From an uncultured archaeon (GTDB lineage Archaea; Altiarchaeota; Altiarchaeia; JAFGQM01), in the NCBI GenBank assembly GCA_964592405.1, contig CAZQBY010000014.1, positions 1 to 20,004 on the forward strand: 20,004 nt of DNA. Reading direction: 5' to 3'. This document shows positions 18,024 through 20,004 of the stretch, in pieces (the stretch's first letter is position 1; every line of letters starts with the position of its first letter). Below the pieces are notes generated by a model. That model was not told the DNA's origin. It saw nothing but the letters and a program-made list of their open reading frames with translations, and did no database searches. The position numbers were made by a program, and so were the translations under genes.

Positions 18024-19019
18024 ATGTCGGAGATACTTATAAAATCTGAAGACGTAACCAGCCAAGACTATGGTTGCGCACCAGACAGGAGGCCGATTGA
18101 AGAGCTTCTGAGGAAGGGGGTAGTGAACCTAGATAAGCCCCGGGGACCCACCTCACATCAGGTCGCCTCTTGGATTAAAGACATCCTCGGCGTCAAAACC
18201 GGGCATGGCGGCACGCTCGATCCGGCAGTCTCCGGCTGCCTTCCGATTTTCCTGGGATCCGCTACCCGGCTTTCAGACCTTATGTTACTCTCGGGTAAGG
18301 AGTATGTCTGCCTGATGAGGCTCCATGCTCATGCCACAAAGAAGAATATAACCTCCCTCCTCAAGAAATTTCAGGGCAACATATATCAGCGCCCCCCAGT
18401 CAAGAGTTCTGTAAAGCGGGTTCTGCGGAAGCGGCGGGTGTATGAAACCGAGCTTCTGGAGATCTCTGACAACAATATCCTCTTCCGTATATCATGTGAG
18501 GCCGGCACCTACATAAGAAAATACTGCCACGATTTTGGTTTGATACTGGGGACAGAGGCACATATGCAGGAGTTGAGAAGGATCAGGAGCGGAGTATTCA
18601 CCGAAGATGATACTCTTGTTACGCTGCACGACCTAAAAGATGCCTATGTTTTTTGGAAGGAGGGAGGAGAAGAGAGGTTTATAAGGCGGTGTGTCCTGCC
18701 CATGGAGTATGCCGTGCAGAATGTACCAAAACTCTGGGTGAGGGATTCTGCAATAGATGCCCTATGCCACGGGTCGGATCTTGCAGCTCCGGGGGTCGTC
18801 AGGATGGAGAAATTCGGCAAGGGCAAGACGGTAGCTGTCATGTCGCTAAAAGGCGAACTGGTCGCATTGGGCGAGGCGCTGGAGACTACCGAGAGCATAC
18901 TGCGCGCAAAGAAGGGCTTTGTTGTCAGGACAGACCGCGTTTTCATGGAGCCCGGCACTTACCCAAAGAGATGGAAAACACAGAGTGAAAATACAAAAGA
19001 CAGCAGAAATGGAAACTGA
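18024..19019 (+). CDS. cbf5: H/ACA RNA-guided / tRNA pseudouridine synthase Cbf5
   Basis: LDKPRGPTSHQV, GHGGTLDP (catalytic Asp), YQRPP, CEAGTYIRK, MQELRR, C-terminal PUA domain. Confidence 0.98.
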   Translation: MSEILIKSEDVTSQDYGCAPDRRPIEELLRKGVVNLDKPRGPTSHQVASWIKDILGVKTGHGGTLDPAVSGCLPIFLGSATRLSDLMLLSGKEYVCLMRLHAHATKKNITSLLKKFQGNIYQRPPVKSSVKRVLRKRRVYETELLEISDNNILFRISCEAGTYIRKYCHDFGLILGTEAHMQELRRIRSGVFTEDDTLVTLHDLKDAYVFWKEGGEERFIRRCVLPMEYAVQNVPKLWVRDSAIDALCHGSDLAAPGVVRMEKFGKGKTVAVMSLKGELVALGEALETTESILRAKKGFVVRTDRVFMEPGTYPKRWKTQSENTKDSRNGN

Positions 19020-19605
19020 CCATTACTTTTCAAAAAAACCCAGATCGAAACCAAAACCCAGAACTTTGAGGCTTTTCATCAGTGGAAAACAAATAGTGTT
19101 CAGGACTTCATCCGGCATCTTTTCACCAAAGAGAATAGACAAAGCCACATTGCTTCTTATAGAAAATATGCGACTTGGAGACAAGATATTAGATCTTGGC
19201 TGTGGCTATGGCCCCATAGGTATAGCTGCTGCCCACCTCAAACCCGGATGTAGTGTAACTATGGTGGAAATAAATGAGCGCGCTGCAATGCTTGCACGTG
19301 AGAACCTCTCCCTGAACCACACCAAAAATGTGCGTGTTATAGAGTCGGATTTCTTTGAGAAAGTTGATGATAGATTTGACACAATTCTTATGAATCCCCC
19401 CATGGCCCTAGGACTCAAACGAATTTTCCTGTTGATTGAGGAGTGCCGGGAGCATCTGGCCGTGGGCGGAACCCTCCAGATAGTCGCGCGCCACAATAAG
19501 GGCGGCGCGCGCATAGCTGCGCGCATGCAGGAGGTTTTTGGAAATGTAGAGACCCTAGCCAAGAGCGGAGGGTTCAGGGTTTATATGTCAGTTCGCTCAA
19601 AATAA
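19009..19605 (+). CDS. Class I SAM-dependent methyltransferase (MTS / RsmC-like)
   Basis: HYFSKKP, SGIFS...ID, LDLGCGYG, NPP; start reassigned to ATG 19009, overlapping the cbf5 end. Confidence 0.92.
   Translation: METDHYFSKKPRSKPKPRTLRLFISGKQIVFRTSSGIFSPKRIDKATLLLIENMRLGDKILDLGCGYGPIGIAAAHLKPGCSVTMVEINERAAMLARENLSLNHTKNVRVIESDFFEKVDDRFDTILMNPPMALGLKRIFLLIEECREHLAVGGTLQIVARHNKGGARIAARMQEVFGNVETLAKSGGFRVYMSVRSK
19580..19586 (+). promoter_or_regulatory. Possible TATA box for the tRNA-Ser cassette array
   Basis: TTTATAT inside the MTase 3' end, about 30 nt before the first acceptor-stem cassette at 19617; no clear TATA closer to the tRNA. Confidence 0.35.
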
Positions 19606-19656
19606 TCGCTTTTCTTGCTGAGGTCTGGCTCGCGGGCGCCGGGACTTCATGCTCGT

Positions 19657-19762
19657 AGCCCTCAGCGCTCATAAGCAGAGAGAATATCTCATGCTGAGCT
19701 TGGGCGAACCTTCGGTTCGCAGCCCTCAGCGCTCATAAGCAGAGAGAATACCTCATGCTGAG
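19657..19762 (+). repeat. 42-bp direct repeat x2 (period 64) joining tRNA 3' acceptor strand, linker and 5' acceptor strand
   Basis: AGCCCTCAGCGCTCATAAGCAGAGAGAATA(T/C)CTCATGCTGAG at 19657-19698 and 19721-19762; one mismatch. Confidence 0.95.
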
Positions 19763-19840
19763 GTGGCGGAATCTGGTAACGCGCTGGACTGCTAATCCAG
19801 TGACCTTCGGGTCTTCCGGGTTCAAATCCCGGCCTCAGCG
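19757..19840 (+). tRNA. tRNA-Ser (anticodon GCT)
   Basis: Acceptor GCTGAGG/CCTCAGC plus discriminator G; anticodon arm CTGGA-CTGCTAA-TCCAG; long variable arm GACC-TTCG-GGTC; T arm CCGGG-TTCAAAT-CCCGG; no intron; CCA not encoded. Confidence 0.97.
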
Positions 19841-20004
19841 CTTCCTTCTCTAGGCAACGCCCCGCGCCGAGGCGTCTGTTCACCTGTTTGCCGAGCTTAT
19901 TCGCCCAGGTGAACATCCCGGCCTCAGCGCTTCCTTCTCTAGGCAACGCCCCCGCGCCGAGGCGTCTGTTCACCTGTTTGCCGAGCTTATTCGCCCAGGT
20001 GAAC
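19826..20004 (+). repeat. 89/90-bp tandem repeat starting with the last 15 nt of the tRNA
   Basis: Copy 1 at 19826-19914, copy 2 at 19915-20004; identical except C4 vs C5 run; each starts ATCCCGGCCTCAGCG; may continue past the window end. Confidence 0.93.

Follow-up and report, generated by a model that had tools for sequence, protein, structure and literature searches.

Hairpin cassettes that copy tRNA ends at a tRNA-Ser gene, and at other tRNA genes, in a family of Altiarchaeota

Sequences that resemble parts of a tRNA are known from several genetic contexts. In Escherichia coli, 178-bp tandem repeats are found behind the tRNA of tyrT/tyrV, and each repeat carries the 3'-terminal nucleotides of the tRNA. 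In Haloferax volcanii a tRNA-like element of the t-element kind lies upstream of the 5S rRNA, and the eukaryotic, cloverleaf-like mascRNA and MEN-beta structures set RNA ends via RNase P and RNase Z. The integron attC arrays and the REP/RAYT system are bacterial. Here we describe an array of short hairpin cassettes around the tRNA-Ser(GCT) gene of a 20,004-nt stretch (the window; C14:1-20004) of the 1.13-Mb, 22-contig, 87%-complete genome (G000) of an uncultured vent archaeon of the Altiarchaeota. Judged from sequence comparison, the array is best explained as one case of a family-restricted Altiarchaeota system, in which tRNA genes would be embedded in hairpin modules that copy their own ends. 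Our preferred reading, to which we assign a probability of about 45%, is that the units are leader and trailer hairpins, built from tRNA ends and co-transcribed with the tRNA, which would be removed by RNase P and RNase Z, maintained by selection and shuffled by recombination. The literature that we surveyed at abstract level held no account of such cassettes. None of the systems compared here combines restored acceptor helices, two-sided arrays, shared modular interiors and a conservation above that of the tRNA.

The cassettes resemble t-elements, as portrayed in excerpts of PMC1920247, PMC4326828 and PMC4946936, in several respects. The t-elements (plant mitochondria) and, by prediction, the cassettes are non-tRNA hairpins that present a tRNA-like acceptor helix within a transcription unit, and cleavage by RNase P and RNase Z is supposed for both. 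Unlike t-elements, however, the cassettes exactly copy the neighbouring tRNA, flank tRNAs instead of mRNAs or rRNAs, occur on both sides, lack a T-arm and have modular interiors that are common to different tRNAs. With tyrT/rtT they share the tandem repeats behind a tRNA that bear the tRNA 3' end. The E. coli repeats are co-transcribed and processed, and an excerpt of bioRxiv 10.1101/2024.07.17.603846 reports that rttR/tyrT is released by processing. Nevertheless, there is no sequence relation, and Rfam RtT gave no match to the array in the gathering or the E-value scan; the E. coli repeats have no restored 5' acceptor strand, occupy one operon and have no upstream counterpart. A third parallel is formed by the att repeats at archaeal tRNAs, which like the repeats described here (at 12 of 33 tRNAs) extend from the T-loop to the 3' end; an excerpt of PMC3293823 describes tRNA fragments in Caldiarchaeum that were created by mobile elements. 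In contrast to att repeats, those of G000 enclose a non-coding hairpin of about 70 nt, closed by an inverted copy and with no integrase found. Moreover, the upstream units copy the 5' end of the tRNA, and the cores are conserved and structured. With regard to function, t-elements and the tyrT/rtT repeats would come closest to the cassettes, and with regard to origin the archaeal tRNA fragments made by mobile elements.

The organization of the array in the window is as follows.

19580-19586 (TTTATAT) and 19598-19605 (CAAAATAA), plus strand: promoter-like box pair, 12-37 nt 5' of unit A; putative promoter
19617-19667, plus strand: unit A, upstream cassette of type U4; GCTGAGG+T ... CCTCAGC + G
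19668-19692, plus strand: linker 1, of the CTCATAAGCAGAGAG... type, 25 nt
19693-19731, plus strand: unit B, upstream cassette of type U2; GCTGAG, GCGAACC-TTC-GGTTCGC, CCTCAGC-G
19732-19756, plus strand: linker 2, 25 nt, identical to linker 1 at 24 of 25 positions
19757-19840, plus strand: tRNA-Ser(GCT), identified by ARAGORN and by Rfam RF00005 (63.8 bits), without intron and without encoded CCA
19841-19865, plus strand: linker 3, 25 nt, pyrimidine-rich, without a run of four or more T
19866-19929, plus strand: unit D, 64 nt, downstream cassette of type D1; GCCGAGG opening, 10-bp stem TGTTCACCTG/CAGGTGAACA
19930-19955, plus strand: linker 4, 26 nt, repeats linker 3 plus one C
19956-20004, plus strand: unit E, second D1 copy, truncated where the window stops at a 100-N scaffold gap

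A preliminary description of the window, made from its letters alone, had placed units A, B and D, the start of a fifth unit and the tRNA at these positions, and all of them were found there in the sequence. Its three linkers of 25 nt, the first two nearly identical, were likewise recovered. The same holds for its view of the locus as a repeat with variable inserts, one of which is the tRNA, and for its argument that plain duplication of the 3' end does not suffice.

The two upstream units fold into hairpins with minimum free energies of -23.0 kcal/mol (unit A) and -20.8 kcal/mol (unit B), and the interior hairpin of unit A contains an invariant CTCGC...GCTCG motif. In unit D, the GCCGAGG opening leaves a C.A mismatch against the local 3' strand. 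The unit ends in 15 nt (ATCCCGGCCTCAGCG, at 19826-19840 and 19915-19929) that directly repeat the tRNA sequence from the T-loop through the discriminator. Beyond the gap the array goes on at C14:20105-20280 with D1 copies, a different linker and a final short hairpin, which is followed by TTTTT at about C14:20280. Tandem Repeats Finder reported a 90-nt period over 19826-20004 (2.0 copies, 98% matches), and a repeat search returned a 46-nt frame repeat common to units A and B as well as the 10-bp stem of unit D. The sequence CCTCAGCGCT occurs 11 times on both strands of the 1.13-Mb genome: six copies lie in the array, four in two other tRNA-Ser arrays and one elsewhere. From this distribution it is clear that the repetition exceeds chance.

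In the window the units open with GCTGAGG, GCTGAG or GCCGAGG, and each closes with CCTCAGC-G. Every unit contains an acceptor-like helix of 6-9 bp. A T-loop is present in none of them, and in the downstream units the T-stem is represented by its 3' strand alone, unpaired. ARAGORN identified one gene in the array, and units A, B, D and E gave no tRNA match in Rfam, even with E-values up to 10. In the Rfam E-value scan the units had no match to any family and the real tRNA was the sole result. The best score for the mascRNA/MEN-beta family (RF01684) was 14.7 bits (cut-off 42.5), inside the T-arm of the real tRNA.

A tandem array that ends a contig piece may raise the suspicion of an assembly artefact, in particular with a 100-N gap inside the tandem part at the window end, which hides the copy number and order across it. 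We consider such an artefact extremely unlikely. The De Bruijn contigs of a public vent-metagenome run (X2) cover 19226-19979 with seven overlapping pieces and zero differences. Short unitigs from public runs carry every junction of the array, in four runs with 0-3 differences; they back each junction, not the long-range order or copy number, and one of the runs possibly is the sample behind the genome assembly. Loose contig ends of X1, X2 and X3 at 19931 run into the linker found after the gap, and in the same three runs unit D has a summed depth some 3-4 times that of the flank. Moreover, the architecture recurs in the assemblies of two further loci, at least five further genomes and one metagenome contig. 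The array junctions are real. Several other tRNA arrays of G000 also end in N gaps, so that tRNA loci are assembly break points in this metagenome-assembled genome (MAG). The cassette repeats break assemblies at tRNA genes and are probably in part responsible for the low tRNA counts of such MAGs.

Similar cassettes are present at other tRNA loci and in relatives, in keeping with the preliminary description. In G000 itself, arrays are found at the intron-bearing tRNA-Ser(GGA) gene (C5:41683-42215) and at another intron-bearing tRNA-Ser gene (C6:83456-83967), which was mis-called by ARAGORN and whose anticodon was read by eye as TGA. Both have four or five upstream units each and D-type units downstream. 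Arrays were further found at the tRNA-Ser genes of two genomes of the same genus (G001 and G002) and three of the same family (G003, G006 and G007), whereas G005 has downstream units only. Cassette types are common to five of the seven other genomes of the family (f1). The architecture is also present at an orthologous metagenome locus (L265). This locus was retrieved with a loose pattern made from the outer stems of type U3, which matched at least 114 loci; among the matches listed, 113 were chance-like, in that no tRNA-Ser starts within 400 nt downstream, and L265 was the true ortholog. The units were catalogued as 44 distinct sequences, a number that includes two false positives in coding DNA, and fall into the following types.

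U1: upstream, 37 nt
U2: upstream, 39 nt (unit B)
U3: upstream, 42 nt
U4: upstream, 51-52 nt (unit A)
D1: downstream (units D and E)
D2, D3 and D4: downstream

The upstream units open with a copy of tRNA positions 1 to 8 or 10 and are closed by the complementary strand. Upstream arrays with such periodic copies of the 5' strand are confined to the three tRNA-Ser loci; tRNA-His is preceded by a partial homologue. A comparison of the loci revealed that identical interiors are set in different frames, namely GCTGAGG/CCTCAGC at tRNA-Ser(GCT) and GCCGAGG/CCTCGGC at the other isoacceptors. For instance, the interior of unit B recurs at C5:41749-41787 and C6:83580-83618 within GCCGAGG/CCTCGGC ends. 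The stem TGTTCACCTG/CAGGTGAACA of unit D is identical at C5 and C6 and in G002 and G003, and a linker of the same type as linker 1 follows each CCTCAGCG-ending cassette at C5, at C6 and in G002 and G007. The order of the units is constant at paralogous loci within a genome and differs between genera. Together, the swapped interiors and this pattern of unit order point to recombination at the shared strands.

Downstream units are more widespread. Of the 33 tRNAs of G000, 12 are accompanied within 700 nt by one or more copies of the 13 nt at their own 3' end (with at most two mismatches), and the first such copy mostly ends 87-94 nt past the tRNA. There were 22 self matches over the 33 tRNAs versus 27 over 916 non-self pairs. 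A downstream unit begins with a pyrimidine-rich linker of some 25 nt, followed by a strand that can pair with the tRNA 3' end, a hairpin core and the direct repeat, which runs from the T-loop (around position 59) to the discriminator plus 1-2 nt; the opening strand often extends through the discriminator as well. Several downstream units are arranged in tandem and coincide with N gaps. Outside the tRNA-Ser loci they were located behind tRNAs for Phe, Arg, Gly, Glu, Ala, His and Val and behind one tRNA that was mis-called by ARAGORN.

C1:19590-19680: downstream unit(s)
C3:32353-32450: downstream unit(s)
C3:58738-58830: downstream unit(s)
C4:59334-59430: downstream unit(s)
C10:41520-41614, minus strand: downstream unit(s)
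C13:1080-1260: downstream unit(s)
C17:5950-6424, minus strand: downstream unit(s)
C18:8247-8900: downstream unit(s)

The core of type D2 (CAAGGTCAT..CACCTTG) shows the phylogenetic range. It is present in 6 of the 61 genomes of the phylum, all of them members of family f1 (G000 and five of the seven other members), and in none of the 53 genomes of other families in the phylum. The pattern gave 18 matches versus one for a reversed control, and the core was found behind tRNAs for Ser, Gly, Val and Ile and behind Met-, Arg- and Asp-like tRNAs. A profile search of G000 gave five significant copies, all five directly 3' of a tRNA and on the same strand, and none elsewhere. Complementarity between the opening strand and the tail of the own tRNA is clear for the Ser, Trp, Ala and Val tRNAs, and for Met and Gln was apparent only in a 7-mer test, which is weak since many acceptor stems are alike.

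A second repeat family was noticed as well and consists of two hairpins within CACGAG...CTCGTG. It is found in G000 at C6:7130-7210 and C4:59440-59560, at about 1330-1415 of L012 (G035:C64), and downstream of arrays in L002, L008, L020 and L047. In G035 the repeat lies inside the T-loop of a tRNA-Ser and resembles a non-canonical intron, while in G000 it is enclosed by a partial copy of tRNA-Pro that lies behind tRNA-Pro(TGG). The position of the intron-like copy matches the start of the direct repeat of the downstream units (T-loop, about 59/60). ARAGORN predicted unusually long tRNA introns at C1:69498-69774 (204 nt), C13:877-1079 (125 nt) and C3:50691-50859 (94 nt), and reported 18 tRNAs for G000 without the intron mode and 33 with it. 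The tRNA introns mark the organism as an archaeon, and Altiarchaeota MAGs are the nearest named relatives according to SecY.

The sequences upstream of the tRNAs suggest how the arrays may be expressed. Of 32 tRNAs, nine have the box CAAAATAA (with at most one mismatch) in the 80 nt that precede them, versus 0.05 per 80 nt in the genome as a whole. The two boxes, TTTATAT and CAAAATAA, precede unit A and the C6 array, and an exact CAAAATAA is found 19 nt ahead of unit A and 23 nt ahead of the first unit at C6. In the three tRNA-Ser arrays themselves the box is absent, again with one mismatch allowed, and at L265 the first cassette is likewise preceded by the box pair. In the window, the box overlaps the stop codon of the preceding methyltransferase ORF (18919-19605). 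A run of four or more T within 30 nt past the discriminator was found for 1 of 12 cassette-bearing tRNAs versus 9 of 20 others (Fisher p = 0.05). With boxes only upstream and linkers without oligo-T, the upstream units are most simply taken as pre-tRNA leader and the downstream units as read-through trailer. The same two-box motif precedes many tRNAs of G000 (e.g. C6:6915-6949 and C1:66640-66672); it consists of TTTTWA, a spacing of about 13-20 nt, (T/C)CAAAATAA and a GC-rich stretch, and is probably the tRNA promoter of this lineage plus its initiator region.

The reading of the units as parts of a pre-tRNA may be worked out as follows. The units would be transcribed together with the tRNA as a structured leader and trailer, as the box positions and the oligo-T-free linkers suggest. 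Each spare acceptor strand would be locked in a hairpin of its own and would not compete with the real acceptor stem, and the tRNA-like helix ends could allow RNase P and tRNase Z to clip the modules off in the fashion of t-elements. Both activities are encoded in G000, with an RNase P RNA of 133 bits and an RNase Z of 364.8 bits. Recombination between shared acceptor strands and direct repeats would multiply the units and exchange their interiors, a step that is borne out by the tandem identical copies, the assembly gaps, the same interiors in different frames and the identical unit order at paralogous loci. Finally, some interiors may hold a sequence-specific function, for instance in protein binding or the control of processing; here selection is seen and the function is proposed. 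The suggestion in the preliminary description of co-transcribed tRNA-mimic hairpins is thus retained in part: it fits the position of the boxes and the linkers, whereas its specific decoy roles were weakened (see below).

Type U3 provides evidence for selection. Between genera (G000, G002 and G007), 40-41 of its 42 nt are identical (95-98%), whereas the tRNA-Ser(GGA) genes in the same comparison are identical at 73-79 of 85-86 positions and the linker after U3 at 15-20 of 25. Judged from these identities, the U3 sequence is under purifying selection, and with one hairpin type conserved above the tRNA the cassettes are probably working RNA modules. The stem of D1 is invariant over three genera, which is uninformative on structure and argues for constraint. 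Some covariation of the interior stems, a point raised in the preliminary description, was observed for U4 and D2. The U4 alignment comprises unit A and nine homologues from four other genomes, and all 100 cells of its 10 pairs are paired, with compensatory changes in two of the 10 pairs. Its covariation score was 0.189 versus 0.069+-0.025 for shuffled alignments, none of which (0/500) scored as high. In the second stem of D2 (22 units), one pair is T-A in 14 units and C-G in seven, and another is A-T in 20 and G-C in one.

These observations also bear on the possibility that the array is neutral debris, i.e. collapsed tandem tRNA duplicates or leftover att repeats that were amplified by slippage and have no function. 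Both acceptor strands would automatically remain after an internal deletion in a duplicated tRNA gene, unequal recombination is favoured by direct repeats of tRNA ends, and unit D retains bits of a T-arm (CGTCTG..TTCA ... ATCCCGG). Degenerate units, moreover, are found behind tRNA-Gly(GCC), tRNA-Glu and the tRNA at C1:67014. Nevertheless, we regard debris as improbable. The interiors are not derived from tRNA and are common to unrelated tRNAs, the stem pairing is kept by compensatory changes, and only about 70 nt lie between the repeats, with no integrase found. In addition, the cross-genus identity of U3 exceeds that of the tRNA, and the SecY proteins of less close relatives are 72-78% identical.

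Several points weigh against our preferred reading of the units as processed leader and trailer hairpins. With no T-loop and no Rfam match, the recognition by RNase P and RNase Z is an assumption. The covariation of U4 comes from only 10 sequences of five genomes, and the D2 set was gathered with a pattern that fixes part of the stem concerned. Several non-Ser 5' strands, of tRNAs with look-alike GC-rich stems, pair only moderately better with their own tail as judged by duplex energy: other tails equalled or exceeded the own tail in 97 of 386 comparisons, and the own tail was strictly the best in 4 of 24 cases. Even where spare acceptor strands are neutralised, this does not explain the conservation of the interiors. 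Finally, folding on the opposite strand is, if anything, favoured for the downstream hairpins (more stable in 24 of 32 cases, p = 0.018, for related sequences); for the upstream hairpins the sense strand is the more stable one in 16 of 26 cases, without significance, and overall there is no folding asymmetry (sense versus antisense 19 versus 23 of 42). The strand comparison consequently provides no G.U signature of a sense-strand RNA.

A system that acts at the level of DNA is the main alternative; we hold it to be less likely than our preferred reading and more likely than debris. The units would then be non-autonomous, site-specific mobile hairpins of about 65-90 nt that insert at tRNA ends, with the T-loop and the 3' end as insertion points for downstream units and the 5' end for upstream ones. 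Folded single-stranded or cruciform DNA would be recognised by a recombinase in trans, as in attC or REP/RAYT, and conservation would serve the propagation of the element itself. This would be in line with downstream hairpins that are at least equally good on the bottom strand, with cores that are common to many different tRNAs in one orientation and at one position with a direct repeat starting in the T-loop, with interiors swapped between constant frames and with an assembly broken by tandem amplification. As in attC arrays and REP elements, imperfect hairpins stand in a row, their terminal inverted repeats are constant while the interiors vary, the spacers are short and an unpaired position recurs near the helix end. 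In the cassettes this is acceptor position 3:70, where 9 of 18 distinct strand combinations have a non-Watson-Crick pair (C.A, C.U, U.C or C.C); no other defect is as common in downstream units. The mismatch occurs in units D and E, the U3 units of C5 and C6 and the downstream units of Ala, Arg, Val, Ile and Gly, and in U3 it is conserved as C.A across genera.

A search for the enzymes of such a system was largely negative. The tyrosine recombinase family PF00589 had no match in the 87%-complete genome, not even a XerA-like one, IntI and RAYT were not found, and a TnpB-like search gave one sub-threshold match. A fragment of an IS200/IS605-type Y1 transposase lies at C1:66-212; it is partial (profile positions 71-119), is placed at a contig start, contains an in-frame TAG and is not linked to the arrays. 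Among the co-occurring genes for which the preliminary description suggested a search, this leaves the broken Y1 fragment and no integrase. Its idea of a tRNA-targeting mobile element may draw on the strict tethering of the downstream cores to tRNAs (five of five), but no integrase was found. Unlike attC and REP sequences, the terminal repeats are specific for the tRNA, a variation that no recombinase is known to tolerate; there are no cassette ORFs, the units are tethered to tRNAs, no core copy lies away from a tRNA and the host is an archaeon. Viral contigs yielded matches at chance level: the D2 pattern gave at least 119 matches in IMG/VR, which by a rough estimate is about the number expected by chance, and none of the 120 viral-contig loci from the D1 and D2 scans scored with the D2 profile at E <= 1e-3. 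The single match of the D1 pattern in viral contigs was an unrelated perfect palindrome. Moreover, the conservation of U3 across genera while the linkers drift fits better with a function for the host.

A third possibility, raised in the preliminary description, is that the units are released as decoys, i.e. as free minihelices that are serylated, CCA-tailed or able to absorb toxins directed at the acceptor end. According to excerpts of PMC4695843 and PMC11392972, minihelices are substrates of several synthetases and of the CCA-adding enzyme, and an acceptor helix with discriminator G is kept in units A, B, D and E and in type U3. The discriminator base in 23 distinct upstream units is, however, A in 11, T in four and G in only eight, which makes a role as decoy of seryl-tRNA synthetase (SerRS) unlikely. 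Furthermore, many units have a C.A or pyrimidine-pyrimidine mismatch at 3:70, the helices often run through the discriminator, a T-loop is lacking and the design is found at tRNAs of many specificities instead of tRNA-Ser alone. We consider decoys very improbable, and this part of the preliminary description is weakened.

Returning to the modular character of the units, it is conceivable, if doubtful, that they represent an undescribed class of tRNA-tethered cassettes, in which both acceptor strands form the frame and the interiors are exchangeable and selected. Such cassettes could be a new kind of small RNA gene that uses the tRNA-end machinery, or a new DNA cassette system with attachment sites at tRNA ends. 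If they are processed RNAs, the archaeal tRNA-end machinery (RNase P, RNase Z and perhaps the CCA enzyme) would mature a set of non-tRNA hairpins, which would add a new layer to the organization of tRNA genes and provide natural minihelices that can be tested. If they are DNA elements, a recombination system would be aimed at tRNA ends without a recognisable integrase.

A number of other assignments were tried and rejected. An integron attC array was dismissed on account of the absence of PF00589 matches and of terminal strands that differ by tRNA, and miniature inverted-repeat (MITE) or REP elements because the copies are not dispersed (five of five D2 cores lie 3' of tRNAs) and the only Y1_Tnp match is partial and stop-bearing. 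A CRISPR array is contradicted by 'spacers' that are hairpins themselves and recur at other loci, and the only CRISPR-DR match, of 17.8 bits (cut-off 35), lies inside the T-arm of the tRNA. For archaeal C/D box sRNAs the only matches were sR41 and sR38 on the minus strand, with 13.6-14.6 bits versus cut-offs of 50-54. C/D boxes, K-turns and bulge-helix-bulge motifs were dropped after inspection by eye only, as was a primer-binding site, for which a CCA complement is lacking. A homology between unit B and the variable arm of the tRNA was also dropped by eye; the shared ACCTTCGG to which the preliminary description had pointed is probably an ordinary C(UUCG)G tetraloop hairpin.

Beyond the window, the final hairpin of the array is followed by an ORF of 414 amino acids on the minus strand (C14:20322-21566) with an N-terminal twin-arginine-like signal and, by eye only, a lytic-transglycosylase-like motif. 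A tRNA-Leu(TAG) gene lies after this ORF at C14:22466-22551.

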